Shown here: one piece after another, positions 7,114-56,761 of the stretch
Position numbering within the stretch: position 1 is the first letter of the stretch
Layout of the letters: every line of letters begins with the position of its first letter
Assembly: GCA_964636545.1 (NCBI GenBank)
Contig: CAZWSR010000001.1
Coordinates: 80,007-144,006 of the forward strand
Length of the DNA: 64,000 nucleotides
Reading direction: 5' to 3'
Source of the DNA: Candidatus Undinarchaeota archaeon
GTDB taxonomy: Archaea; Undinarchaeota; Undinarchaeia; Undinarchaeales; UBA543
Position numbers and translations under genes: made by a program
The notes under the pieces: model-generated
Told to the model about the DNA's origin: nothing
The model's database searches: none
The model's input: only the letters and a program-made list of their open reading frames with translations

Positions 7114-8436
7114 TCATTTTAGTAACCTCTTGTCTGATTTTCCCACTATATTTAACTTGCTGATAATCTGGTCAATTGAAAGAAGTTCTTGTTCGCCAGT
7201 TTCCATGTTTTTCAATGCGTATTTCTTTGCCTTAATTTCCTTTTCACCAATTATAACAACAAATGGAATTCCACTTGAGTTTGCAAAATCCAGATTCTTT
7301 GAAATACTTCTTGCTTTTGTATCAAAATCAGTATTGATTCCAGCTTTTCGAAGCTGCTGAGCAATTTCAATTGCTTTCTCATTACAATTTGGGAAATAAC
7401 ATACAAGTGCTTTGATTGCTCCTGATTTCTTTAATTTTCCAACTTGCTCAAGAACTTGAACTAAACGATCAATTCCAATTGAAAGACCTGTAGCTGGAAT
7501 TTTTTCTCCACCAGCAAGCGAAACTAAATTGTCAAACCGTCCGCCACCAGTAATTGAACCAATTTTCGCATCCTTTGCTTTGAATTCATAAACCATTCCA
7601 GTGTAATAAGCTAGTCCACGAGCCATGCTCAAATTCAATCTAAGATAATCAGAAATTCCATATGACTTTGCTAATTTGAAAAATTCTTCTAATTCAGCTA
7701 GTCCTTCTTTTGCAATATCATTCTTTGCAATATTTTTGGCTGTTTTCAGAACTTCAGTTGGTTTTCCTTCTGCAAGAAGTGCATTCAAAAGATTCCTACC
7801 CTTTTCTTCATCAAGTTTCTTGTCTTTCATTTCAGCAATAACTGCATCTTCTCCAATTTTGTCAAGCTTGTCAATGCATCTAAGTAAGTTTGGAACTTCT
7901 TTTTCAGTAAAACCATAATCAAGTGCAATTCCTTCAACAAGCTTTCTGTTATTTATGTCAACATAAAATTCTTTGAAATCTAATTCAAGCATTACATTAG
8001 TTGCGCAAGCAACAGCTTCCAAATCTGCTTCTACACCTTCTGCACCGAATGTATCAATATCTGCTTGCCAAAATTCTCTGTACCTTCCAGCTTGTGGCCT
8101 CTCGTATCTCCAAACCGGACTGATTATGAATCTCTTGAATGGTTTTGGTAATTGTGAATTATTTGCAACTAAACGTGAAGTTGGAACTGTTTGGTCAAAT
8201 TTCATTCCAAGCATTCTGCCGCTCTGATCTTTTAATGAAAAAATTTCTTTAGCAACTTCTTCTCCACCACCAGACTTTGCAGTAAGCAAACTTAAATTCT
8301 CAAGCGCTGGTGTCTGTATTTCGCGGAAACCGTATTTGGAATAAACAGTTCTGATAGTGTCGATTACATACCTGCGCTTTTCCATGTCCTCTGGTAAGAA
8401 GTCACGCATTCCTCGTGGTGTTTCAAATTTAGGCAT
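7114..8436 (-). CDS. hisS: histidyl-tRNA synthetase
   Basis: MPKFETPRGMRDFLPEDM... with class II aaRS motifs. AGGAGG SD is 7 nt upstream of the ATG at 8436. The track ORF extends upstream into the tRNA gene. Confidence 0.9.
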   Translation of the reverse strand: MPKFETPRGMRDFLPEDMEKRRYVIDTIRTVYSKYGFREIQTPALENLSLLTAKSGGGEEVAKEIFSLKDQSGRMLGMKFDQTVPTSRLVANNSQLPKPFKRFIISPVWRYERPQAGRYREFWQADIDTFGAEGVEADLEAVACATNVMLELDFKEFYVDINNRKLVEGIALDYGFTEKEVPNLLRCIDKLDKIGEDAVIAEMKDKKLDEEKGRNLLNALLAEGKPTEVLKTAKNIAKNDIAKEGLAELEEFFKLAKSYGISDYLRLNLSMARGLAYYTGMVYEFKAKDAKIGSITGGGRFDNLVSLAGGEKIPATGLSIGIDRLVQVLEQVGKLKKSGAIKALVCYFPNCNEKAIEIAQQLRKAGINTDFDTKARSISKNLDFANSSGIPFVVIIGEKEIKAKKYALKNMETGEQELLSIDQIISKLNIVGKSDKRLLK

Positions 8437-8440
8437 TTTT

Positions 8441-8477
8441 CCTCCTGTTAGCTGATAGCTGCCAGCTGTAAGCTGAA
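8441..8477. repeat. family-A tRNA-flanking octamer-word element (CAGCTAAC/TAGCTGAT words)
   Basis: Copies also at 8555-8600, 13217-13250, 18629-18686 and 55561-55596. Every copy abuts a tRNA gene. Confidence 0.6.
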
Positions 8478-8478
8478 A

Positions 8479-8554
8479 TGGGGCCCGGGCCGGGAATTGA
8501 ACTCGGGTCTGAAGATCCACAGTCTTCCATCCTAACCATTAGACTACCCGGGCC
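8479..8554 (-). tRNA. tRNA-His (GTG) with encoded G-1 and CCA
   Basis: Hand-folded: G-1, acceptor GCCCGGG/CCCGGGC, anticodon stem GAAGA/TCTTC, loop CTGTGGA, T-loop TTCAATT, discriminator C, CCA present. Confidence 0.85.
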
Positions 8555-8742
8555 AAATATATAGCTATCAGCTACCTGCTTGCAGCTAACAGAAATAGAA
8601 ACTTTCCTACTACTTAAAACTTTGTCAAAACTAAAACTAGACGAACTTCCTTGTTCAACAATGAAGGCAATCCCTTCTGTTCATCATAGTAGTGACATAT
8701 GCCATATTGGTAGTATATAAAGTTTGTTATGTTGGTTAAGGC

Positions 8743-8793
8743 GTCAGCCCTCGGCCCTCAGGTCCTGACTGCTGATGGCTGATACCTGACACC
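8743..8793. repeat. family-B GC-rich element GTCAGCCCTCGG...GCTGATGGCTGATACCTGACACC
   Basis: Four copies (8743-8793, 11508-11558, 21456-21519, 31453-31502), each within a few nt of a stop codon. Internal GTCAG/CTGAC inverted repeats. Confidence 0.6.
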
Positions 8794-8800
8794 TGTTTCC

Positions 8801-10362: not shown

Positions 10363-10410
10363 AGGTGCGAATAGGAAATCGCAGGTTATAAAGGTTAGGT
10401 TTTATTCAGA

Positions 10411-10481
10411 TAGGTAGTGGGTAGTAGGCAGTTGGCAGTAGGTCAGTTCCACTACCTAGTGCCCAGTGCCTACTGCCTGTG
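10411..10481. repeat. family-D GC-rich imperfect hairpin built of GGCAGTAGG / TAGGTAGTGG words
   Basis: Sits in the divergent promoter region between the SpoIIM-like gene and trxB. A second copy lies inside the dtdA ORF at 40491-40516. Confidence 0.55.
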
Positions 10482-11490: not shown

Positions 11491-11651
11491 AAAACAGGTG
11501 TCAGCAGTCAGCCCTCGGCAGTCAGGTGCCTGACAGCTGATGGCCGATACCTGATACCTTTCACAAATTTAACCAACACTGACATATGTCATTACTAACA
11601 ACACATAAATACTCTATTTATGTATGGATTAGCTAAGGAGGATGATTAAAC

Positions 11652-13169: not shown

Positions 13170-13263
13170 TAAAGAGTAGGAGGGTTGGGACTTATTTAAA
13201 GTTTGTTGAAAAATATCTGATAGCTGACAGCTGGTAGCTGTAAGCTTTAGCCAATTTCAAAAG

Positions 13264-14545: not shown

Positions 14546-15165
14546 TCTTTATCAGGGATTGGATAGCCATTACTATTTAAAAATTCTTGCACTGCTTTAA
14601 TAACAGAATCCTTAACAGCCATTTTGTCAGGCATGGCATCAATGCGTTTGAAATTATTTGATTTGTCATTTGCTAGCTCTTCATAAACACCCCTAACTTT
14701 TGTTAGGAATTCAATATTTTCAAATTTTTCACCTTTGTCACAGCGATTGACTCCTTCTTCAGGAGTCACATCAAGATAAATAGTAAGGTCTGGATCTCTT
14801 GCAAAAAAGTGAATGTCCTTGAGCATTTTAAGGTCTTGCCCTTGAGCAGTCTGATATGCAAAACTTGAGTATTTGTAACGCTCACACACAACAACTTTTC
14901 CTTCATTGATAGCTGGACCGATTTCATGTTCCAGGTGCTCGGCGCGGTCTGCTGCAAAAAGAAATGCATCAGCCAATGACAAACTTGATTCATCCTTGAG
15001 ATATTCGCGAATTAATCTTCCAATTCTTCCGCGTGACGGTTCTTCAGTATAGAATACTTTGTAGCCTCTTCTGCGAAGGTAGTCAGTAATAAAACCAGCA
15101 TGCTCCGACTTACCACAACCATCAATTCCTTCTATTGCAATAAATAATCCCTTTTTTTCTCCCAT
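14542..15165 (-). CDS. tmk: thymidylate kinase
   Basis: FIAIEGIDGCGKS P-loop and DRAEHLE lid region. 4-nt overlap with the downstream gene. Confidence 0.85.
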   Translation of the reverse strand: MGEKKGLFIAIEGIDGCGKSEHAGFITDYLRRRGYKVFYTEEPSRGRIGRLIREYLKDESSLSLADAFLFAADRAEHLEHEIGPAINEGKVVVCERYKYSSFAYQTAQGQDLKMLKDIHFFARDPDLTIYLDVTPEEGVNRCDKGEKFENIEFLTKVRGVYEELANDKSNNFKRIDAMPDKMAVKDSVIKAVQEFLNSNGYPIPDKE

Positions 15166-15932: not shown

Positions 15933-17149
15933 CCTTTGTATTCTGTGTTTTCTTCAACATCTTTGTAAATAACAACGCCAGGCCATATTCGTGACCCTGC
16001 ACCAATCTTTTTTCCAGGATTTATCACAACATTTGAACCGAACTTGACATTATCCCCAACAATTCCGCCGAGTTTTCTCAAGCCAGTATCAACTTGTTTT
16101 CCTTTGACATTCACAAGAACATTGTTGTCATCATGCCGTAGGTTTGTCATAATTGCCCCAGCACCGAAATTTACATTTTGTCCAATTACTGAATCTCCAA
16201 CATAAGAAAGATGAGGAATACAAGTTCCATTCATCACAATTGAATTCTTGACTTCAACGCCTTGTCCGATTTTGCAGTTGTCACCAATGCAAGTGTAAGG
16301 CCTGATGAAAGCATTTGGACCAATTGTACAGTTCTTTCCGATTATTACAGGACCTTCAATATAAACACCAGATTTGATAACAGTCCCTTCACCGGCGACT
16401 AATTTTCCGGTTACATGAACAAATTCCTCAACAGTTGCTTTGTTTTCTTCAGGTGCTTCGTCAATGAATTTCTTACTAGCTGTGATAAGTTCCCATGGAT
16501 AATTTATTGAGCGCCAATATTCAACTGGGATTACAGTAACACCATCTGGAATAAGTTTAGTGATTGCGTCAGTAATTTCATATTCGCCTCGCTTAGATTT
16601 TTCAAGAGTGTCAATTACTTTGAAAATTTCAGGAGAGAATGCGTAAATTCCAACATTAACAAAATGCTCGCCTTCTGCATGTTCTGGTTTTTCAACAAGA
16701 CTTTTAACAAAATTCATTTCAACTTCAACAACACCAAGACCTTTTGGATTTACTTTTTTTGTTATAGAAACAGTTGCTTTGGTTTTGTGTGCTTCCATTA
16801 CATTTTTTAGATGCTCAGAAGTGCTGAAATCATCACCATTTAGAACAAGGAAATCTTCAGTGAATTTATCTTTTGCCAAGCCAATTGCATTTGCTGTTCC
16901 AATTGGTTTAGCTTGAATTGCATATGAAAGTGAAACGCCTTCTTGCTCGCTACCTAGTGCTTTTTCAACTTCACTTTCTGGATTTACAACAATAAGTACT
17001 TCAGAAATTCCAGCTTGTTTTAGAGCAGACAAACTGCGGGATATAATTGGCTTGTTTGCAACAGGAAGTAGACATTTGTTTCTAGTGTCACTTAGCGGCT
17101 TCATCCGTTGACCTTTTCCTGCAGCAAGTATCAATGCTTTTGTTATCAT
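15929..17149 (-). CDS. bifunctional sugar-1-phosphate nucleotidyltransferase / acetyltransferase (GlmU-like)
   Basis: N-terminal LILAAGKGQRMKP nucleotidyltransferase motif and C-terminal left-handed beta-helix hexapeptide repeats. Confidence 0.8.
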   Translation of the reverse strand: MITKALILAAGKGQRMKPLSDTRNKCLLPVANKPIISRSLSALKQAGISEVLIVVNPESEVEKALGSEQEGVSLSYAIQAKPIGTANAIGLAKDKFTEDFLVLNGDDFSTSEHLKNVMEAHKTKATVSITKKVNPKGLGVVEVEMNFVKSLVEKPEHAEGEHFVNVGIYAFSPEIFKVIDTLEKSKRGEYEITDAITKLIPDGVTVIPVEYWRSINYPWELITASKKFIDEAPEENKATVEEFVHVTGKLVAGEGTVIKSGVYIEGPVIIGKNCTIGPNAFIRPYTCIGDNCKIGQGVEVKNSIVMNGTCIPHLSYVGDSVIGQNVNFGAGAIMTNLRHDDNNVLVNVKGKQVDTGLRKLGGIVGDNVKFGSNVVINPGKKIGAGSRIWPGVVIYKDVEENTEYKG

Positions 17150-17206
17150 TGTACAGAGAAAGACTGATTTGGCTTTATAAAGTATTGCTAAAAAAAAATC
17201 TAAAGT

Positions 17207-17274
17207 GGAGCTGGGGCGCAGGGGCGCCGTGTTGTTTTTCGACTCTCCAGCCCTGCGGCTCTACGGTGCCCCAG
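17207..17274. repeat. family-C GC-rich element containing tandem GGGGCGCA octamers
   Basis: GGAGCTGGGGCGCAGGGGCGCCGTG...ACGGTGCCCCAG imperfect hairpin in a divergent promoter region. GGGGCGCA x3 recurs in frame in dtdA (40284-40316). Confidence 0.55.
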
Positions 17275-17316
17275 ACAATAGTATTTATAAACCAGTGACA
17301 GATACAAATTGAAGGA

Positions 17317-18117: not shown

Positions 18118-18385
18118 GATGACTCTGAAATCACTGACGTCTGGGTATCACAAAGATATGCAACAGACGAAAAAAACAGTGATAAATGGATTTAGTATTG
18201 TTTTAAAGAGCTTGAAAGTGATGGAAATTGTTGTGAAAGGAATTACAGCAAATAAGGAAAAAATGCAGGAAATAATTGAAAAAAGCGGATGCTTAGCCAC
18301 AAACGAGGTAGATAAGTTGGTGTTGGAAGGAATTCCGTTCAGACAAGCGTACAAGCAGGTAAGAATAGCTTATAACAACAAATAA
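17969..18385 (+). pseudogene. argH: argininosuccinate lyase C-terminal fragment (about 138 of about 460 aa)
   Basis: Fumarate-lyase signature SSIMPQKKNPD plus LATNEVDKLVLEGIPFRQAYKQV. An in-frame stop lies immediately upstream and there is no room for the N-terminal two thirds. Confidence 0.6.
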
Positions 18386-18414
18386 AAAGCACCTGTTTTA
18401 GAATAATGTGCTAT

Positions 18415-18626
18415 GGGCCTATAGCCTAGTCTGGATAAGGCGGCAGCCTTCTAACGGCCGCAAAATCGGCCGGCGCTTTGCGCTGCATTCAGCAGAACCT
18501 CAACAGGTTAAGCTGAAGCAGCGTGGCTCGCACACATAGGTGAAAAACCAAATATGTGCGCGCTCGCCGGACCTTTGAGGTTTGGAAGAGAGCTGCAAAT
18601 CGGGGGTTCAAATCCCCTTGGGCCCA
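18415..18626 (+). tRNA. tRNA-Arg (TCT) with about 137-nt intron (about 18454-18590) at canonical 37/38
   Basis: 5' exon GGGCCTA-TA-GCCT..AGGC-G-GCAGC-CTTCTA. 3' exon A-GCTGC-AAATC-GGGGG-TTCAAAT-CCCCT-TGGGCCC-A. Intron GAAG pairs with exon CTTC (BHB-compatible). Confidence 0.75.
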
Positions 18627-18698
18627 TCTCAGCTAACAGCTACCTGCTAACAGCTAACCTGTTCTGGTAGCTGGAAGCTGTAACCAACAATTAGCATT

Positions 18699-18815: not shown

Positions 18816-20561
18816 ATGGTAACAGATCCTTGGCAAAAAGCAAGAGAAGATGTCACAAAAGCAGTGGCAGAAGTTATACCTCAATTGGCAATCCCAAAAA
18901 CACGATTAAAGAAAATAAAGCTGGTAAACCACATTGATGAGCCACCTAGCTACAAAATGGGAGACCTTGCTTGTAGTATTTCATTTCCATTTGGAAAAAT
19001 AAAAAAAGTCAGTCCAAGGAAGATTGCAGAAGATATTATTGACAAAATTCACAGACCACGCAGTGTTTACTTAATAAAACTGGCAGGTGCATATGTTAAT
19101 TTTTTCCTGAAATTCGGAGAATTTGCAAAAGCGGTTGTTACTGAAGCATCAAAAGATACTTTCGGAAAAGGCGAGAAAAAGAAAGAGAAAGTAATGATTG
19201 AGTACAGTCAGCCAAATCCACTAAAAGCATTCCACATCGGACATGTTAGAAATACTGTTCTTGGAGAAAGTTTGAGCAGAATAATGAAAGAAGCTGGATT
19301 TGATGTTATTCAAGCAAATTTGTTTAATGATATTGGAATGCATGTTGCAAAAACACTGTGGTGCTACAAGAAATACCACGATGGAGAAAAGGCGCACACT
19401 AATGTTTCTAAATGGATTGGAACAATTTACAGAGATGCTTGCAAAAAAATTGAAGAAGATCCTAAAAACAAAGAAGAAGCAGATGAAATTCTAAAACATT
19501 TAGAAGCGCAAGATAATGAGGAAATCACTAAATTGTGGAAGCAATTCAGAAAATGGAGTGTTGATGAGTTCAAGGAAATTTACAAAGAATTAGATGCGCA
19601 CTTTGATGTTGACTTTTATGAAAGCGATTTGAAACCAAGAGGAAGAGAACTTGTTGAAGAGCTGAAGAAAAAGAAAATCGCGAAAAAGAGTAAGGGCGCC
19701 ATTATTATTGATTTGAAAAAAGATGACTTACCAGTTTGGTTGTTGCTGAAAAGTGACGGAACAGCACTTTATTCAACACAAGACCTTGCACTTGCTGAAG
19801 AAAAATTCAAGAAATTCAAAATTGACAAGTCAATTTATGTTGTTGGGTCAGAGCAAAGATTGCATTTCCAGCAATTGTTTAAGACATTACAGAAAATGGG
19901 TTTCAGAAAAGCAAAGAAATGTTACCATTTGGCATATGCTTTGGTTGCTTTGCGAAGTGGAAAAATGTCATCCAGAGAAGGAACCGCAATATTATATTCT
20001 GATTTGAAACATGAAATGCTCAAAAAAGCAATGAATGAAGTTGCTGAGAGAAACCCTGAAATGGCTGTAAAAACTCAGAACGAACTTGCTGAAAAGATAA
20101 TGATGTCTGCTATGAAATACAGCATGCTTAATGTTGGAAACAACAAGACAATCTTTTTTGACTGGGACACTGCACTTGAATTTGAAGGTAATACTGGACC
20201 GTACTTGCAATATGCAACTGTTCGTGCAAAAAGAATTTTGGAGAAAGCTGGCAAGAAACCAACACTAGCTGGGATTCAGTTCAAGTTATTGGATAGTAAG
20301 GATGCACAGCGCTTAATAAAACAAATAGCAAAACTGCCATCTGTGATAAGAGAAGCTGCAGAAACATACCAACCACATATTATTTCAAATTACGCATATT
20401 CTTTAGCTGACAAATTCAGCACATTTTACACAACAAATCCAGTTATTGAGGCAGAAACACCTGAACTAAAAGCAGCTCGGATTGCACTAGTAAACGCAAC
20501 ATATAAAACCCTCCAGAAAGCCCTTTATCTCCTTGGAATTGAAGAGCCAAAGAGGATGTAG
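18816..20561 (+). CDS. argS: arginyl-tRNA synthetase
   Basis: Class I HIGH motif (AFHIGHVRNT) and a DALR-type C-terminal region, 581 aa. Confidence 0.9.
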   Translation: MVTDPWQKAREDVTKAVAEVIPQLAIPKTRLKKIKLVNHIDEPPSYKMGDLACSISFPFGKIKKVSPRKIAEDIIDKIHRPRSVYLIKLAGAYVNFFLKFGEFAKAVVTEASKDTFGKGEKKKEKVMIEYSQPNPLKAFHIGHVRNTVLGESLSRIMKEAGFDVIQANLFNDIGMHVAKTLWCYKKYHDGEKAHTNVSKWIGTIYRDACKKIEEDPKNKEEADEILKHLEAQDNEEITKLWKQFRKWSVDEFKEIYKELDAHFDVDFYESDLKPRGRELVEELKKKKIAKKSKGAIIIDLKKDDLPVWLLLKSDGTALYSTQDLALAEEKFKKFKIDKSIYVVGSEQRLHFQQLFKTLQKMGFRKAKKCYHLAYALVALRSGKMSSREGTAILYSDLKHEMLKKAMNEVAERNPEMAVKTQNELAEKIMMSAMKYSMLNVGNNKTIFFDWDTALEFEGNTGPYLQYATVRAKRILEKAGKKPTLAGIQFKLLDSKDAQRLIKQIAKLPSVIREAAETYQPHIISNYAYSLADKFSTFYTTNPVIEAETPELKAARIALVNATYKTLQKALYLLGIEEPKRM

Positions 20562-21449: not shown

Positions 21450-21542
21450 AGACAGGTAACAGCCCTGAGCCCTCAGGTGTCAGGTCGTCCTGACTGCTGA
21501 TGGCTGAATGCTGACACCCTAACCAATTTCAAAAAAGATGAG

Positions 21543-32423: not shown

Positions 32424-32429
32424 AGTTTT

Positions 32430-32497
32430 TTAGAGTTTAGATTTTGGAATTTAGAATTTAGAGTACTCCAAATTCTAAACTCTTAATTCCAAATTCC
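32430..32497. repeat. family-E AT-rich palindromic element of GAATTTAGA octamers
   Basis: Left arm of tandem (g)a(g/a)tttaga units, right arm of tctaaatt complements. Second copy at 48650-48717. Confidence 0.55.
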
Positions 32498-32555
32498 ATT
32501 CAGAAAATATTAACAAAACCCAACACTATTTATAAAAAAACAAACTAGCCCCACT

Positions 32556-39448: not shown

Positions 39449-40153
39449 CTACATTTCGATTTTATATTTTTTAAAATCCTTAATTGCTTGTTGATCGCGA
39501 TTTGAGTTCTTGTAGTCAGTATATTTCAAATCAACAACAACATCAAATCCAAGTTCCCGGAACATTTTTGCATAAGTGCGAACGCAAGCACCGAATTCGA
39601 CACCCGTTATAAAGATAGCATGGTCATCTTTGTGTAGAGAATGGTCAATACAAATTTGTGTGACAACAGCTTTTGGCCATGGCCATTTTTTATCTTCTTC
39701 CAATTCCTCACCATCTTTTTTAACCTCTCCTTTTCTTGGATCAATGTAGAATTTCCGGTAAGTAACATATTTTTCATCAAAATGAACAGGAATAAGAATT
39801 GGTTGTTTTTTCCCTCGTTCAGTAAACTGAGCATAGAAAAGTTTTTCCATGGCTCTGTACATTTTTGGATCAGTAAGCTGAACAGGCCAAGGCCTTGTTT
39901 CTTGAACTTCGTCGAAAAGAATTTTGAGGGGGCCGTGATCAAATTCTGACTTGCTAGAAGTATCTAAAATTATTATAGGTTCTTCTTTGGAATCAATTAA
40001 TTCCTCCATTTTCTTTACATGCTTGGAAAAATCCTTTTTAGTCTCAATATTAAATGATCCTGCATTTGGATGCACAAGCACATAGACATTCGTTTTGCGA
40101 CCCATAACATTTTTAATATGGTAGAGGAAGTATATAATTCTTAACATGAACAC
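39449..40153 (-). CDS. isochorismatase-family-like hydrolase (divergent)
   Basis: C-terminal AIFITGVEFGACVRTYAKMFRELGFDVVV resembles the isochorismatase Cys region. Confidence 0.45.
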   Translation of the reverse strand: MFMLRIIYFLYHIKNVMGRKTNVYVLVHPNAGSFNIETKKDFSKHVKKMEELIDSKEEPIIILDTSSKSEFDHGPLKILFDEVQETRPWPVQLTDPKMYRAMEKLFYAQFTERGKKQPILIPVHFDEKYVTYRKFYIDPRKGEVKKDGEELEEDKKWPWPKAVVTQICIDHSLHKDDHAIFITGVEFGACVRTYAKMFRELGFDVVVDLKYTDYKNSNRDQQAIKDFKKYKIEM

Positions 40154-40967
40154 AAAAATCCTTTACTGGACCAAGAATCCAGCAGCTCAGAATATTATGA
40201 AACAGTTTAATGAGCTTGGAGTAGATGTAGAAGTTTTTGAAACAGAGAAGGATTTTTTGTATTTGACTGATGAGGATATTAACGGGGCGCAGGGGCGCAG
40301 GGGCGCAGGGGCTCAGACTGATTTATTGATATTTCCAAGCACGCACAAGAGCGCTGCAAATAAAAAGTCATTAACTATTCACGCTACAGGTAATTTTGGG
40401 AATGCTGATTATGGTGGAGAGCCAAAGAAATTGAATCCAACAAGTTCTGAGGCGATTGCAATAGGACTACGCAGTATGGCGAATCAGGCACTAGGTAGTA
40501 GGCAGGGGGCAGTAGGTTTTGAAGTTTGTTTGGAAGTAACACATCATGGACCGACAATTAAAACTCCGTTAGTTTTTATTGAAATTGGTTCAACTGAAGA
40601 AGAATGGGGAAATGTGGAAGCTGGGAAGGTTATTGCAAATGCTATTAAGGATATTATTGAATACCTCAAACCCCCAACCCCAAACCCCAAACCTTTCACA
40701 AACTACATCGGCTTCGGCGGTCCTCACTATGCACCAAGCTTTACAAAAAAAATTATTGAAAATGAGAATATTGCAATTGGCCATATTTTGCCAAAATATC
40801 AGCAAGATAATGTTACTAAAGATATTATTCAGCAAATGTTAGATGGAAGTAATGCAAAGAAAGCTGTTTTTGATTGGGATGGAATGAATTCTGAGCAGAG
40901 GAATAAGGCTGTTGGGATTTTAGATGAGTTGGGGATTGAGTGGTGTAAGACAAAGGAATTAGTTTAA
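40146..40967 (+). CDS. dtdA: D-aminoacyl-tRNA deacylase, archaeal type (DtdA)
   Basis: THHGPT, FIEIGSTEEEWG, GFGGPHYAP, IGHILPKY as in Pyrococcus DtdA. Two GC-rich repeat insertions lie in frame. Confidence 0.8.
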   Translation: MNTKILYWTKNPAAQNIMKQFNELGVDVEVFETEKDFLYLTDEDINGAQGRRGAGAQTDLLIFPSTHKSAANKKSLTIHATGNFGNADYGGEPKKLNPTSSEAIAIGLRSMANQALGSRQGAVGFEVCLEVTHHGPTIKTPLVFIEIGSTEEEWGNVEAGKVIANAIKDIIEYLKPPTPNPKPFTNYIGFGGPHYAPSFTKKIIENENIAIGHILPKYQQDNVTKDIIQQMLDGSNAKKAVFDWDGMNSEQRNKAVGILDELGIEWCKTKELV

Positions 40968-45884: not shown

Positions 45885-48602
45885 TTATTCCCCCTGTGGT
45901 GGCTTTTCTGGCTGTTCAACAGGAACTTCTTGGGGACTGTCAAGATTTGGCACATCAAGGTTTTCAATTGGTGTTTCAGTAGGTGCTTCAGGTTCTAGAT
46001 TGGGTAATTCAAGTGGAATGTCTTCAAGCATTGGCTCATTTGATTCTTCCACTGCCTCCTGCCCACTGCCTTCTGCCTCGTCTTCTATAATTTCTTCCAT
46101 CTTTGGCTCTTCAACTTCTTTTTCTGCAATCTCGTCATTCGTTCCAATTTCAATTCCAACAAGTTTGGAAGTGCCATCTGATTGCATTGAAACACCGAAT
46201 AGGCGCTCTGCATTTCTGACAACAGAATTATTGTGACTGATAATTAGAAGTTGGGATTTTTTTGCTCGCTCTTGCATTAAAGTGACGAATCGCATTGAGT
46301 TTGCTTGGTCAAGAGCAGCATCAACTTCGTCAAGAACATAAAATGGGGATGGTTTGTAGCTCTGGAGAGCAATTAAGAATGCTAATGCAGTCATTGTTTT
46401 TTCACCACCAGACAAGGAATCAATACTGAGAATCTTTTTTCCAGCTGGTTTTGCTTCAACAAACAATCCGCTTGCTAGTGGATCTTCTGGATCTTCAATT
46501 ATTAAACGAGCTTCTCCCTCAGGTGAAAGTTTTGGGAAAACTTGTGAAAATTCTTCTCCGACCTTGTTGAAAACTTCAAAGAAAACTTCCTTTTTACGTT
46601 TTTCAATATCTTCAATAAAGTCAATAATGGAATTGCGCTCACTCTTGAGAGTATTGAATTTTTCTTCAAATACTTGGAATTCTTTCATGTGCTGACCATA
46701 CAGTTCAATTGCTTTCATATTCACTGGCTCAAGTTTTATGACATTATTGTTAACTTTGATTAAGCGCTCATCCATTTTTTCAATGTCGCCTTCTTCAAAG
46801 TCCATATCCTTGAACTTCTCCATGTTCAGGCGAATGTCAGTGAGTTTTGCATCAATTTGCGCTTTTTCAATTCTAATATCAGAAATTTTGCGGGTTGCGG
46901 ATTCTTTTTGAAGGCGAACTTGATCACATTTTTCTCTGAGCTTGTCAATTTCCAAATCAAGAACTTCAGAATCTCTCTGCATAGATTCCATTGTGTTTCC
47001 AACTTCCTTGTCCTTTTTCAAATAATCTTCATATTCTTTTTTGAGTGCCTCGTTACTGAGTGAAAGATCTTCAATTTCATCAAGGAGCTTGTCTCTGGTT
47101 TTGACATATTCCTCAATTTCTGAACCTGAACCTTTCTTTCCTCTTTTCTGAGATCCGCCACTAATTGATCCAGCTCTTTCTGCAATATCACCAAGAAGAG
47201 AAACCATTCTGATTTTACCAATGTGTGATTTTACTTTGTCAATATCTTCAACAATGTGAGTATTTCCAAAAGCGTATTGGAAGGCTTTATCGAATTTGCT
47301 GTCGTATTTCACAAGATTAAGTGCAAGTCCGATAATTCCAGCCCCATTTGTTTCCCTGATTTCTTTTGGTGGTTGGATTTTGTTGAGCGGGAGGAAAGTT
47401 GCGCGACCCATGCTGTTTTCTCTAAGGAAATTAACGCACTTGATTGCAGTATCGTCACTGTCAACAATCACAAAATGACTTCGTTTTCCAAGAGAATTTT
47501 CAATTGCACTTGCATATTTTGCATCGTGAGTCATTAATTCAGAAACTGTTCCATGAATTCCTTCAATTTCTGATTTGAGATTGGAAATAAATCGTGCAGG
47601 AGTTGAACTGCGGGCTTGCAGGTTTGAGACCATCCCATCTATTCTTGAAATTTCAGATTGTTTGCTCTCTATTTTGCTTTCGTTAATTGAAATTCGGCCT
47701 TTAATGCGCTCTGCTTCGAATTTGACACCGACTTGCTCTGTGCTACCTTCGTGAATGAGCTTGGTATCAATTCCTTTTTTGCGTGATTGTTTTTCAGTGA
47801 GCTTGTTGTTGATATCTGAAAATTCAGATGCAAATTTCTGCTCTTCTGTTTGTTCTAAACTTATTTTTTCCTGAATTTTGGATTCAATTACTTCTGCGTT
47901 TTTTAATTTAGTAAATGCTAATTGTCCTTCAAGCCCAGCTGCCTCATCTTTGAGTGCTTTGTATTTTTCAGCATCTTCTTTTTCTTTCCTTAGTGATTCT
48001 ACATGCTTTTTGCGCTCAGACATCACAATTACAATTTCTTTTATGTGAACTTCAACTGCACCAAGATCTTTCTGTGCTTTGTCTCGCTTTTCATCGTATT
48101 CTGAAATTCCACAGATTTCATCAAGAACTTGTCTTCGGCCAAATGGGTCCATTTCAATGAAGTTCGTGACATCTCCTTGCAAGACAATGTTGTGACCACT
48201 GGCCTTGAACATGTGAGAAGAAAGAAGGTCAACCATTTGCTGTTTTGTGCATTTTTGGTTATTGACTTTGTAAGACATTGTACCGTTTCTGGTGAGACGG
48301 CGAGTTACGCGGACTTCGTCATTTTCAAAAGGTAGTTCTCGCTTTTTGTTATCTAAAACTAGAGTGACTTCCATAGCAGTGGCTGGTGGATTACCTTTGC
48401 CCCCGTTGTAGATGAGATGCGCAAGCCGTTCTGCCCTCATTGAGCGTGCAGATGAACGCCCAAGAACAAAACAGATGGAGTCACAAATGTTTGACTTTCC
48501 AGAACCATTTGGTCCAACGAATGCTGTTAGGCCTTCGGAAAGCGGGATAACGACCTTCTTGTTGAAGGATTTGAAGCCCTGCATCTCTAAGCTCTTAATC
48601 AC
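45885..48602 (-). CDS. smc: chromosome segregation ATPase SMC (short form with acidic C-terminal tail)
   Basis: Walker A FVGPNGSGKSN, hinge region, signature LSGGEKTMTALAF, Walker B VLDEVDAALD. Confidence 0.85.
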   Translation of the reverse strand: MIKSLEMQGFKSFNKKVVIPLSEGLTAFVGPNGSGKSNICDSICFVLGRSSARSMRAERLAHLIYNGGKGNPPATAMEVTLVLDNKKRELPFENDEVRVTRRLTRNGTMSYKVNNQKCTKQQMVDLLSSHMFKASGHNIVLQGDVTNFIEMDPFGRRQVLDEICGISEYDEKRDKAQKDLGAVEVHIKEIVIVMSERKKHVESLRKEKEDAEKYKALKDEAAGLEGQLAFTKLKNAEVIESKIQEKISLEQTEEQKFASEFSDINNKLTEKQSRKKGIDTKLIHEGSTEQVGVKFEAERIKGRISINESKIESKQSEISRIDGMVSNLQARSSTPARFISNLKSEIEGIHGTVSELMTHDAKYASAIENSLGKRSHFVIVDSDDTAIKCVNFLRENSMGRATFLPLNKIQPPKEIRETNGAGIIGLALNLVKYDSKFDKAFQYAFGNTHIVEDIDKVKSHIGKIRMVSLLGDIAERAGSISGGSQKRGKKGSGSEIEEYVKTRDKLLDEIEDLSLSNEALKKEYEDYLKKDKEVGNTMESMQRDSEVLDLEIDKLREKCDQVRLQKESATRKISDIRIEKAQIDAKLTDIRLNMEKFKDMDFEEGDIEKMDERLIKVNNNVIKLEPVNMKAIELYGQHMKEFQVFEEKFNTLKSERNSIIDFIEDIEKRKKEVFFEVFNKVGEEFSQVFPKLSPEGEARLIIEDPEDPLASGLFVEAKPAGKKILSIDSLSGGEKTMTALAFLIALQSYKPSPFYVLDEVDAALDQANSMRFVTLMQERAKKSQLLIISHNNSVVRNAERLFGVSMQSDGTSKLVGIEIGTNDEIAEKEVEEPKMEEIIEDEAEGSGQEAVEESNEPMLEDIPLELPNLEPEAPTETPIENLDVPNLDSPQEVPVEQPEKPPQGE

Positions 48603-48713
48603 TGTGAAATAGTATAGCGCCTAGTGTATTTAAGAGTTTTGTCAAAATGGAGTTTGGAGTTTAGAATTTAGAGTTTAGAGTAACTCCAAATTCCAAAATC
48701 TAAATTCTAAATT

Positions 48714-50021
48714 CTACGGAGTTAATCTCTTAGCATCTCTTGGGAACAAAACAGCTTCCCGTACATTTGGCAAGCCAAGCATGACCATAACCAATCTGTC
48801 AACACCAATAGCCCAGCCAGCATGTGGCGGCATTCCGTATTTGTAAAACTCAATTGTTGATTCAAAGCCCTTTGGATTCATGCCTTTTGATTTCAAACCA
48901 GCAATGTACATGTCAGGATCGTGGATTCTGCGGCCACCTGAAGCTAATTCCATTCCTTCAAAAATTAAATCAAATCCGTATGATAGTTTTTTGTCTTTCT
49001 CATGTGGGTGGATGTAGTACGGTTTTTGCTCCATTGGCATTTCAGAAACTATCACAGGCCCTTTGTAAAGTTCTTGAATTATTCTCTCTCCCTCAGGTGG
49101 GATGTCCTCACCCCATTTTAGTTTAAGTCCTTTGCCTGCAATTTGTTTTAGAATTTCAGTATAAGTTTTCACAACCATTTTCTTTGGCTGAGTAAGTGTG
49201 ACTTTGAGGGTTTCAAGTTCTTTTTTGCAATTCTTTGCAACATCTGAGTAAATTCGCTTTAGGATGCCTTCTGCAACTGACCAAGTTGCTGTTTCATCAA
49301 CAAAACCCATTTCAATATCAAGTTGTGTTACTTCTGCTAAATGTTGAGTTGTGTCAGATGGTTCTGCGCGGAATACCTGACCAATTTCAAATACTTTTTC
49401 AAAACAAGATGTCATTAATTCTTTGTAGATTTGCGGGCTTTGTCGCAAAAATGCTTCTTTATCAAAATAATTAATTGGGAAAAGTTCTGCACCACCTTCT
49501 GTGGCGCTTGCAATCATTTTTGGTGTCTCAATTTCGCGGAAATCGCCTTCAGTTAGGTAATCGCGAGCTGATTTAAGAACTTGAGCGCGAATTGCGAAAA
49601 TTGCCGATATTCGTGGTTTTCGGAGGTCAAGAACACGTGCGTCAAGGCGTGTGTCAAGCTCTGCCAAAACCTTCTCATTTACTTCAAGTGGTAGTGGTGT
49701 TTTGGACTTGTTTAGCAAAAGAATGTCGTCCAGGATGACTTCAACGCCCCTGTTTGTCTTATCTGTCTTTTTTACTGTTCCTTTTACTGCGACAGCAGAC
49801 TCTCGTGTGATTTCTGAGAGTTTTTCAAAGGCCTTTGGTGCATTTTTCTTAAGAACCGTTACTTGAGCATCGCCTTCGCGGTCTGCAAGAACTAGAAAAG
49901 CTAGGTTTCCGTGGAGGCGAACGTCTCGCAACCAACCCATTAATGTTACTTTTTTCCCATCTAGAGCTGGAACTATTTCATTAGTGAAGTGTGTTTTAGT
50001 CCAGTTGGATAGTGAGTCCAT
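48714..50021 (-). CDS. aspS: aspartyl-tRNA synthetase (archaeal/eukaryal type)
   Basis: OB-fold N-terminus, class IIb motif 2 FRAEPSDTTQHLAEVTQLDIEMGF, motif 3 GMPPHAGWAIGVDRLVM. Confidence 0.9.
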   Translation of the reverse strand: MDSLSNWTKTHFTNEIVPALDGKKVTLMGWLRDVRLHGNLAFLVLADREGDAQVTVLKKNAPKAFEKLSEITRESAVAVKGTVKKTDKTNRGVEVILDDILLLNKSKTPLPLEVNEKVLAELDTRLDARVLDLRKPRISAIFAIRAQVLKSARDYLTEGDFREIETPKMIASATEGGAELFPINYFDKEAFLRQSPQIYKELMTSCFEKVFEIGQVFRAEPSDTTQHLAEVTQLDIEMGFVDETATWSVAEGILKRIYSDVAKNCKKELETLKVTLTQPKKMVVKTYTEILKQIAGKGLKLKWGEDIPPEGERIIQELYKGPVIVSEMPMEQKPYYIHPHEKDKKLSYGFDLIFEGMELASGGRRIHDPDMYIAGLKSKGMNPKGFESTIEFYKYGMPPHAGWAIGVDRLVMVMLGLPNVREAVLFPRDAKRLTP

Positions 50022-55560: not shown

Positions 55561-55603
55561 CTCATCAGCTATCGGCTAACAGCCAACAGCTATCAAACTT
55601 GTT

Positions 55604-56233: not shown

Positions 56234-56542
56234 TTAAAGCTTCTTTATGTGCTCAACTCTTACCTTTGACACTACTGGTTTCCAAACTTGTGCTGGGAGC
56301 CAGCTTGGCCTGTTTTCAGGGGACTTGACTTTCTTTCTTGATCCCTTGAACACGTGAATAGAGTATGATCCGTCTGAATTTCTCCTTCCACGCTGTCGTA
56401 GCCTGATGTCAGTTAGGTTTCGAGTTGCTGCTTTTAGAGCTGCCTGTCGTGGAGCAGATCCAGTGAAAACTCTCTCAGAGTCTTTGGACTTGTTCCTCAA
56501 AACGTAGGTCTTTTTTGCTCTTGTTTTTCTTTTTTTTGCCAT
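56234..56542 (-). CDS. chromosomal protein MC1
   Basis: KTYVLRNKSKDSERVFTGSAPRQAALKAATRN...IRLRQRG...HVFKG...NRPSWLP closely matches Methanosarcina MC1. ATG at 56542 has a GGAGGTG SD; the track ORF extends upstream. Confidence 0.8.
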   Translation of the reverse strand: MAKKRKTRAKKTYVLRNKSKDSERVFTGSAPRQAALKAATRNLTDIRLRQRGRRNSDGSYSIHVFKGSRKKVKSPENRPSWLPAQVWKPVVSKVRVEHIKKL

Positions 56543-56761
56543 TTTTATTCCACCTCCTTTGGACATTCGAAATATTAACAAAAACGGTAAGCTAGAACCA
56601 TATATAAGCATATCGACACGCTTGGTGCCGGTTTTGAGTAGTAAAGTATATATACTAGGATTTACTCGCGTTTTTCCCGCAACAAAAACGATAGCAAGCG
56701 AAGTATTTTTGAAAAGGGTTTTCCCAGTGAAGTATTAAGTAAATTCCCGGAAGAACTGAGT

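Follow-up and report, generated by a model that had tools for sequence, protein, structure and literature searches.

Period-7 and period-8 DNA arrays lie in frame in three loops of an Undinarchaeota dtdA gene and resemble arms of dispersed intergenic repeats

In a 64-kb stretch of the genome of a tiny marine archaeon of the Candidatus Undinarchaeota (DPANN), hereafter called the window, the dtdA gene carries three short tandem arrays of 7- or 8-nt units that are translated in frame. This gene encodes an archaeal-type D-aminoacyl-tRNA deacylase. At each site, the DNA period is kept between lineages while the encoded peptide is not, and arrays of the same kind are found elsewhere in the window, mostly as intergenic hairpins. 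The explanation that we favour, with moderate confidence, is that the in-gene arrays are arms of lineage-specific periodic repeats, comparable with repetitive extragenic palindromic (REP) sequences and the miniature transposable elements with inverted repeats known as MITEs, which were copied or converted in frame into tolerant loops as passengers at the DNA level. The window has a G+C content of 37.6% and a housekeeping gene content (aminoacyl-tRNA synthetase genes, CarAB, SMC/ScpA, RNase HII and others, from Pfam scans of ~55 open reading frames, ORFs). Its nearest genome records are Candidatus Undinarchaeota metagenome-assembled genomes, L005 at 80% identity and UBA543 (= L006) at 72%; the other relatives are designated by L numbers in the same way.

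The dtdA ORF (40146-40967, + strand, 273 aa) is assigned to the DtdA family by profile and by predicted fold, and its product is a predicted deacylase. The protein matches Pfam PF04414 over profile positions 3-204 of 205 (E=1.6e-63; 214.3 bits for a cut-off of 33.6) as well as PDB entry 2gfq (E=1e-37). Its AlphaFold model has a mean predicted local distance difference test score (pLDDT) of 91.3, and Foldseek aligns this model with the two solved archaeal DtdA-type proteins, PH0006 (2gfq) and AF0625 (1yqe), with template modelling (TM) scores of 0.85-0.86 (E=5e-26). We aligned 25 homologues, among which 36 columns are invariant, the HHGP and GGPHY blocks included. The only low-confidence coils of the model are the three segments encoded by the arrays, with a block pLDDT of 65-76 at site 1, 73-81 at site 2 and 77 at site 3, and sites 2 and 3 are gaps in the alignment to PH0006. 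An earlier note on this DNA had placed the repeats in surface loops. This is supported because the three positions of insertion or deletion are coils of lowest pLDDT and, for two of them, gaps relative to the solved structures PH0006 and AF0625.

Site 1 (40284-40316, + strand) has the sequence GGGGCGCAGGGGCGCAGGGGCGCAGGGGCTCAG, i.e. three copies of the octamer GGGGCGCA followed by GGGGCTCA and a G. It spans codons 47-57 and encodes GAQGRRGAGAQ; Tandem Repeats Finder (TRF) reports 4.1 octamer copies with 96% matches, and residues 48-59 are coil in the model. Site 2 (40485-40518, + strand) reads CAGGCAC TAGGTAG TAGGCAG GGGGCAG TAGGT, a period-7 array of GGYAGNN units encoding QALGSRQGAVG. Within it, CTAGGTAGTAGGCAGGGGGCAGTAGG (40491-40516) lies in frame in ALGSRQGAVG, and residues 119-122 have a pLDDT below 50. 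Site 3 (40665-40697, + strand) reads CTC AAACCCC CAACCCC AAACCCC AAACC TTTC, with a period-7 AACCCCA unit, and encodes LKPPTPNPKPF; TRF reports 4.4 copies of ACCCCAA at 40663-40693 (87%), which encode PPTPNPKP, and residues 175-184 are coil. The earlier note had described the first two arrays, whose sequences, positions, frame and translations proved exact, but had missed the third one. It had also taken the octamer as the unit of expansion, which holds for site 1, whereas sites 2 and 3 have a period of 7, also the dominant one in the genome-wide class of arrays.

As DNA, the three in-gene arrays form no hairpin (z scores of -0.84, -0.02 and -2.2; minimum free energy of -1 to -6 kcal/mol), and the idea of a hairpin inside the gene was dropped on this ground. 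The 75-nt insert found at site 2 of L005 does not fold either (z +1.2). The octamer array (40284-40311) provides, on the mRNA strand, the sole canonical G-quadruplex motif (four G-runs of 3 nt or more, loops of 1-7 nt) of the 64-kb window, both strands considered. Orthologues do not keep this motif: the (GGRACACA)x4 array of L067 does not contain four G-runs, and an array is missing altogether from most orthologues. A G-quadruplex was rejected as the reason for the site 1 array because the motif is confined to the lineage of the window. A scan of the window at Rfam gathering scores returned tRNAs only, with no RNA family at any array.

To compare filled and empty alleles, the orthologous DNA of ten relatives was read codon by codon. 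Among DtdA proteins that are 70-85% identical, exactly three positions vary in length, and these are the array sites. In the empty alleles (e.g. L006, L087, L088, L070), site 1 has 9 codons and sites 2 and 3 have 6 each, whereas filled alleles always bear a tandem array of period 7 or 8 whose unit differs by lineage. At site 1, L067 has (GGRACACA)x4 in the same register and copy number as the window, L068 has a degenerate GGGGCKC array, and the array is absent from L005, L006, L073, L074, L087 and L088. At site 2, the unit is CAGGTAT in L074, TCAGNNN in L068 and TAACGCC in L073, while the 75-nt insert of L005 consists of two inverted arrays. At site 3, the unit is AACCTYC in L005, AACCACA in L068 and AGCCTAA in L073, L067 has a plain 15-nt tandem duplication, and L006, L070, L074, L087 and L088 have no array; the orthologous arrays of L005 and L068 are identical to that of the window at 27/33 and 29/33 positions, respectively. 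The alignment confirmed that the dtdA segments are extra relative to orthologues, and no relative was found with the same residues but no repeat structure in its DNA. The net changes relative to the empty alleles are +30, +18 and +21 nt across the three sites, which departs from the multiples of 24 nt that had been proposed.

At a given site, the peptides are unrelated between lineages (GAQGRRGAGAQ, QGTQEHRNTGTQ and GAPGLGGSEDQ; also NQALGSRQGAVG, RQVAAVSPQLSE and RQYLTPKAQRLTPG), and the DNA period is kept. Since this period is not a multiple of 3, an array is translated in all three frames. The DNA unit thus dictates the peptide, and the peptide differs completely from one lineage to another; therefore, the constraint acts on the DNA periodicity, and the peptide is a passenger. 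Tolerance of the arrays is limited to loops and tails, and to versions free of stop codons: in L073, the array unit that would give an in-frame TAA reads CAA. Within an array, the units are 0.64-0.94 identical, which is above the identity between lineages, and sharing the same position in the array does not make the units of two lineages more similar. This pattern is a signature of concerted evolution or replacement. The clearest case is site 1, where all four L067 units have the same G->A changes with respect to the window. At four-fold degenerate sites, identity is down to 0.33-0.56, which is near saturation; a perfect array therefore cannot be ancient sequence free of constraint. As for the copy-number polymorphism that the earlier note had proposed to look for, none was found at the consensus level in five independent assemblies, sampled as four contigs with the exact protein and one contig found by its pattern, from different samples; the JGI, ENA and other assemblies have the same DNA. 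Array copy number is also identical among L005, L078 and L072. A metagenome scan with the DtdA protein of the window gave 10 loci and no new close alleles.

The distribution of the arrays conflicts with the gene tree. A neighbour-joining tree built without the inserts groups the window with L005, L074 and P0008 (clade A, 93.5%), L067 with L068 (clade B, 56%) and L006/L075 with L073 (clade C, 85%), and filled and empty alleles are both present in all three clades. Within clade A, the empty alleles still read VPEA and NQKTFE, which are the ancestral words. The site-1 and site-3 segments of the window resemble clade B, flanks included, and the rest of the gene groups with the empty alleles. According to sliding-window identity, our sequence is nearest to L005 over most of dtdA, with L074 a close second (and the nearest in several intervals), and is L068-like only right at the arrays, over tracts too short for a formal recombination test. 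This points to short-tract recombination among lineages or to parallel templated copying.

Periodic arrays are widespread in this genome. A strict scan of the window (at least 3 units, lag identity of at least 80%, expectation from dinucleotide shuffles) identified 7 period-7 arrays for 0.4 expected, i.e. a ~17-fold enrichment, and 1 period-8 array for 0.7 expected, which is dtdA site 1. A lenient scan found 19 period-7 arrays. The class is lineage-specific: in Undinarchaeota-like loci, 27 period-7 arrays were counted in 181 kb, compared with 5 in the dtdA loci of other archaea (65 loci, 571 kb); no enrichment was seen for a period of 6 or 9 in the same comparison. L006, L007 and L070 have zero period-7 arrays in 12-20 kb. 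Arrays are abundant in the lineages of the window, L067, L005 and L068, against one at most in the samples of L006, L007, L070 and L075. The unit families of the window are TCAGCNN/TCAGGNN, GGCAGTA, TTTAGAR, GGGGCGCA and CCCCAAA. Richness in G+C is not a defining property because some families are AT-rich (e.g. TTTAGAG).

Most of the intergenic arrays are inverted pairs that fold into bulged hairpins (DNA z scores of -2.2 to -5.6). The element at 10409-10480, intergenic and of period 7 according to TRF, is a bulged hairpin whose arms are GGYAGTN heptamers (-19.8 kcal/mol, z -4.97); it is the partner of dtdA site 2 and of an array in the SMC gene. Two other intergenic hairpins are made of TCAGNNN heptamers, at 8741-8796 (z -2.19) and 11494-11561 (z -3.06). 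A CAGCTAA heptamer hairpin at 18627-18690 lies between tRNA-Arg(TCT) and tRNA-Arg(TCG) (z -5.61), and another heptamer hairpin lies directly 3' of tRNA-Arg(GCG) at 21459-21522 (z -3.51). AT-rich heptamer hairpins are found at 32427-32499 (TTTAGAR family, z -4.01) and, as a DNA fold of GGAGTTT/AGAGTTT units, at 48650-48716 between SMC and a class II aminoacyl-tRNA synthetase gene. The GC-rich intergenic element at 17207-17274 had been described as a hairpin carrying the site 1 octamer: the word is indeed shared, but the hairpin is weak (z -0.69 over 17200-17280). L067 favours octamers, with an intergenic hairpin of GGGACTAG units, two copies of GGGGCTTA and its dtdA array. At the spot orthologous to 48650-48716, upstream of the SMC promoter, L067 has two octamers, GGGGCTTA and GGGGCTTG (18240-18270), and L075 has none (16990-17010). 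An intergenic element of L075 (1271-1493) has complementary heptamer arms (GGCGTTA / TAACGCC) flanking ~130 nt with a long stem, GAGCTGGCGTTAGGC...GACGTTAGCTC; these ~130 nt may be an unannotated structured RNA carried by the element.

Arrays also accompany tRNA genes. Heptamers of the form (CAGCTNN)x4 or CAGCNNT lie directly 3', on the sense strand, of five tRNA genes (His, Pro, Arg-TCT, Arg-GCG and Met), the positions concerned being 8444-8479, 13211-13250, 18627-18660, 21487-21522 and 55562-55596, and also 8560-8600. In two of the trailers, the array is preceded by TCTTTTGAAATTGGYTA. For tRNA-His, which abuts the histidyl-tRNA synthetase gene (7114-8520), a complementary array is also present upstream, and the tRNA is predicted to be enclosed by pairing of its leader with its trailer. 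Four tRNA-Arg genes (TCT, TCG, CCT and GCG) surround the arginyl-tRNA synthetase gene (18816-20561). One of them, tRNA-Arg(TCT) at 18414-18628, is interrupted after position 40 by a 137-nt intron; default ARAGORN and Rfam both missed this gene, which the intron option of ARAGORN recovered.

In addition to dtdA, other genes contain translated arrays. The C-terminal tail of SMC (46049-46081, - strand) is encoded by GAGGCAG AAGGCAG TGGGCAG GAGGCAG (sense), which gives AEGSGQEAVE, and SMC orthologues have unrelated sequence at this position. This array, dtdA site 2 and the hairpin at 10411 form one family, which is thus present both in intergenic DNA and inside unrelated ORFs. In L067, the C-terminal tail of ScpA (14721-14767, - strand) consists of seven translated AGCTAAN heptamers (..KANSQELIAKSKAPKAE..), and the tail of a 23S_rRNA_IVP-family protein (127-172, + strand) is a translated (CACGTMCC)x4 array (TPRPHVPTYPRP*). 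In contrast, among 17 syntenic genes compared with 7 related loci, a 7/8-nt periodicity of insertions and deletions was seen only in the SMC tail and in dtdA. Not every indel is therefore of this kind, and dtdA is a conspicuous hot-spot.

We then compared the in-gene arrays with the dispersed elements, taking the best ungapped match of each query and, as a null, 60 shuffled queries; this null is somewhat lenient, because shuffling destroys the periodicity. Site 2 of the window matches the left arm of the hairpin at 10411-10444 over 27/34 positions (null maximum of 22). Across genomes, site 2 of L068 matches the left arm of an intergenic element of the window (11494-11527) over 29/34 positions (null maximum of 22), while four-fold sites are only 52% identical between L068 and the window. 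The right arm of the same element (11494-11561), taken as its reverse complement (11528, minus strand), matches site 2 of L074 over 27/34 positions (null maximum of 23). Two arrays of L073 match a single intergenic arm of its sister genome, L075:1400, namely site 2 over 29/38 positions (null maximum of 25) and site 3 over 29/35 (null maximum of 23), and these L073-L075 matches extend into the non-repeated 5' flank CAATACC. For site 1, an exact 15-mer, GGGGCGCAGGGGCGC, is common to dtdA and the element at 17213-17227. The repeat words are over-represented in the window, as the earlier note had expected: GGGGCGCA occurs 4 times (3 in dtdA and 1 at 17213) for 0.29 expected, with 0/100 shuffles reaching 4, and GGCAGTAGG has 3 copies (one in dtdA and one in each arm of the 10411-10481 hairpin) for 0.14 expected. 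The in-gene copies, which do not fold, correspond to single arms. Besides, a palindromic word, CCGGGGCGCCGG, is found both in a small ScpA insert of L067 (NSGAP, 14790 region) and at the start of the L068 site-1 array (10163), a hint that GGGGCGC-type words travel between genes.

The repeat class has a unit of 7 nt, sometimes 8, often starting with YAG, with ~4-5 units per arm, and its main forms in this genome are tRNA trailers and bulged hairpins made of two inverted arrays between genes. In the explanation that we favour, an arm of such an element would be copied into a gene, either by a transposition-like insertion or by templated, ectopic (template-switch) gene conversion. Homogenisation would then be maintained by length-preserving slippage or by conversion, and short-tract homologous recombination would pass array-bearing alleles between related genomes. 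On repeated occasions, lineages have gained, lost or exchanged the segments that bear arrays. The earlier note had proposed either replication slippage or a targeted mini-element. A mini-element fits best, whereas stepwise slippage would shift the frame: one-unit slippage is unlikely because of this frameshift and of the net changes of +30, +18 and +21 nt.

Several observations weigh against this explanation, to which the leniency of the shuffled-query null must be added. The extra residues are real but are not clean insertions, since the arrays replace 12-18 resident bases (12->42 nt, 18->39 nt), and neither a target-site duplication nor a clean boundary was found between filled and empty dtdA alleles. 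The weakest link with a dispersed element is that of site 1, whose full-length match with the 17207 element (24/39) equals the null maximum, and site 3 has no relative elsewhere in the window. No gene for a transposase, HUH/RAYT protein, integrase or reverse transcriptase was detected by Pfam among the ~55 ORFs of the window, which is a part of the genome. Three of the four in-gene arrays of the window are in dtdA, and the same three codon positions are reused across lineages; random insertion plus selection does not explain this same-site reuse and clustering. Lastly, L070 holds at site 1 a single unit-like word, ACAGGGGAGGCAGAC. This is a plausible local seed that favours an in-situ origin of the site 1 array, which may have started from such a word.

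A local, microsatellite-type origin is the alternative that accounts for the last point. The arrays would have arisen in situ by slippage from a seed word under weak repair, and their likeness to intergenic elements would reflect a shared mutational bias. The tandem structure itself agrees with this, as do the one-unit state of L070, the unit-like words (CCGGAAGCAGAT) contained in empty dtdA alleles and the plain 15-nt duplication of L067 at site 3. Similarly, site 1 has the same register and copy number in the window and L067 with units changed in concert, and orthologous intergenic spots contain different units (48650 in the window and the corresponding L067 spacer). However, the addition of a single 7- or 8-nt unit would break the frame, the net changes of +18, +21 and +30 nt are accompanied by replacement of flanking codons, and the five assemblies show no length polymorphism. 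A local origin is also difficult to reconcile with the two inverted arrays (75 nt) of L005 at site 2, and with matches across loci and genomes that span the variable N4 positions and non-repeated flanks (29/34, 29/38) despite neutral saturation. We thus consider a purely local origin unlikely.

The arrays could also be functional cis-elements, i.e. phased (YAG-N4)n sites for an oligomeric RNA- or DNA-binding protein of the HutP type, in which case a role as signals for regulation or processing would fall to the copies in dtdA mRNA and in tRNA trailers. Such a role would suit the conservation of period and copy number while the unit sequence is free, the many units that begin with CAG or TAG, and the documented XAG-N4 x3 architecture of HutP sites (PMC2425495). 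It would also suit the (CAGCTNN)x4 arrays placed directly 3' of five tRNA genes, the complementary arms that bracket tRNA-His, and the family sequences kept between genomes beyond neutral expectation. On the other hand, the YAG phase is present in ~8/11 unit types, which is statistically weak, octamer arrays break the spacing, and a candidate protein was not found. When the two strands of eight elements were folded as RNA in search of a G-U asymmetry that would betray a functional strand, no consistent advantage of one strand was seen. Moreover, the arrays are dispensable, because many relatives (L006, L007, L070) lack them altogether. A role as cis-elements is therefore improbable.

Selection on the protein has even less in its favour. 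Arg/Gly-rich loops can bind RNA, and loops such as the RGG-like GAQGRRGAGAQ might have been selected for tRNA binding or for another property of DtdA. The three inserts are kept in frame, and site 3 is common to the window, L005 and L068. Yet lineages that keep the DNA period at a site have unrelated peptides there, close relatives are entirely without inserts, and the inserts are predicted to be disordered in the model, which leaves protein-level adaptation very improbable. A contingency locus, in which a non-triplet repeat would switch dtdA on and off by slippage (phase variation), could be suggested by the perfect 4 x 8-nt repeat inside the ORF. We regard it as highly improbable because no length variation was seen, whether in the five assemblies or across L005, L078 and L072; furthermore, there are four units only, no lineage has the array out of frame, the heptamer arrays are imperfect and dtdA is a housekeeping gene rather than a surface gene. 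Finally, an assembly or binning artefact, with reads from repeats inserted chimerically in dtdA, is practically negligible: metagenome assemblies can collapse or misjoin repeats and the contig L082 ends shortly past the array, but the JGI, ENA and other assemblies agree in DNA with an intact ORF, and independent genomes bear related arrays at the same codons.

Three further observations concern the neighbourhood of dtdA and other sequences. Just 3' of dtdA, an archaemetzincin-like gene (PF07998; 40985-41633, - strand) is split by a frameshift into ORFs of 130 aa and 82 aa, and the independent assemblies L001 and L002 give identical split gene calls; a pseudogene, a programmed frameshift and an error common to the assemblies are all conceivable. 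A homologue of the MC1 chromosomal protein (PF05854, E=8e-23) is encoded at 56234-56611 (- strand) of this DPANN genome. In a 4.3-kb IMG/VR contig (L086), a Mu-like phage portal gene (PF06074, E=1.6e-102) of an unrelated organism carries AGTAGTA GGCAGAA GGCAGTA GGCAGTA AGCAGAA in frame near its C-terminal part (2305-2345). This is the sole match of the viral collection to the site-2 family pattern; it is about at chance level and probably coincidental.

Going beyond the favoured explanation, we tentatively raise the possibility of a previously undescribed archaeal element. It would consist of phased hairpins of ~4-5 units of 7/8 nt per arm that spread or convert among dozens of sites, bracket tRNA genes and leave single arms in frame in loops and tails. 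Its arrays would be homogenised by a dedicated process (a structure- or period-specific enzyme, or a ring-shaped binder reading YAG every 7 nt) and passed on between lineages by short-tract recombination. Such an element, if it exists, would define a new class of invaders of coding sequences and would let protein loops evolve rapidly in reduced archaeal genomes. The textbook case of repeat DNA that colonises coding sequence while sparing the protein is Rickettsia, and archaeal non-autonomous repeats are much less known. The dtdA gene shows that a streamlined DPANN genome can fix non-triplet (7/8-nt) arrays in the reading frame of a conserved enzyme, with reuse of the same three loops and with arrays that are internally homogeneous while neutral sites saturate. 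It thus offers a tractable natural system in which selfish or mutation-driven repeats create and renew protein loops. For the annotation, alignment and phylogeny of DPANN genes, it is a warning that the hypervariable inserts are repeats of the DNA rather than features of the protein. The array families could also serve as sequence markers to track recombination among uncultured lineages, and they point to a wider unexplained feature, the heptamer arrays flanking tRNA genes.

The Undinarchaeota genome paper does not mention repeats, full-text searches returned nothing on heptanucleotide or tandem repeats for DPANN, and none of the papers searched describes such repeats in this archaeal phylum. 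The pattern, which is clear, appears not to have been described, but its closest concept is known. Among known systems, fungal mitochondrial GC clusters and double-hairpin elements are GC-rich palindromes of AT-rich genomes that occasionally lie in frame in coding sequence (yeast var1). They are, however, organellar and are not tandem arrays, and some of the families described here are AT-rich (TTTAGAG). Contingency loci and low-complexity inserts share with our arrays tandem repeats in ORFs, rapid turnover and concerted evolution of units. In contingency loci, however, copy number varies within populations and the frame switches, and low-complexity inserts usually have triplet periods, whereas the arrays here have a period of 7/8, a fixed in-frame length and no polymorphism. 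Regarding HutP/TRAP sites, each face of HutP recognises three XAG triplets separated by 4-nt spacers (PMC2425495), and this (XAG-N4)x3 spacing equals the period of 7 of many of our arrays. The resemblance is only formal: not all arrays have the motif phase, the unit is an octamer in some of them, and no such protein was found.

Closer likenesses are found among dispersed palindromes. REP sequences, bacterial interspersed mosaic elements (BIMEs), REPINs and MITEs are, like the present elements, short imperfect palindromes in many copies, mostly intergenic or near gene ends, which form hairpins, include several families per genome and are non-autonomous. REPs are extragenic by definition and have no internal 7-nt periodicity, whereas four arrays of the window are translated. 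MITEs have terminal inverted repeats and target-site duplications, neither of which is seen between filled and empty alleles, and the RAYT/IS200-like gene of REPIN-RAYT systems was not found among the ~55 ORFs of the window. The nearest analogue is the Rickettsia palindromic element (RPE). RPEs are ~150 bp long and form ten families, with 44 insertions in R. conorii, nearly half of them inside ORFs (PMC10969869). As in RPEs, we find a dispersed repeat family, defined at the DNA level, in a small, AT-rich and reduced genome, with copies in intergenic DNA and, in frame and at tolerant positions, in unrelated housekeeping ORFs. RPEs are, however, whole palindromes of ~100-150 bp in a bacterial host, each family having a conserved peptide. 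In this archaeon, the copies are 18-33 nt long (up to 57 nt in L005), usually comprise one arm and consist of 7/8-nt units read in three frames, with lineage-specific peptides and concerted evolution. The arrays thus stand nearest to RPEs while differing from their definition in size, in whole-palindrome insertion and in the conserved peptide.

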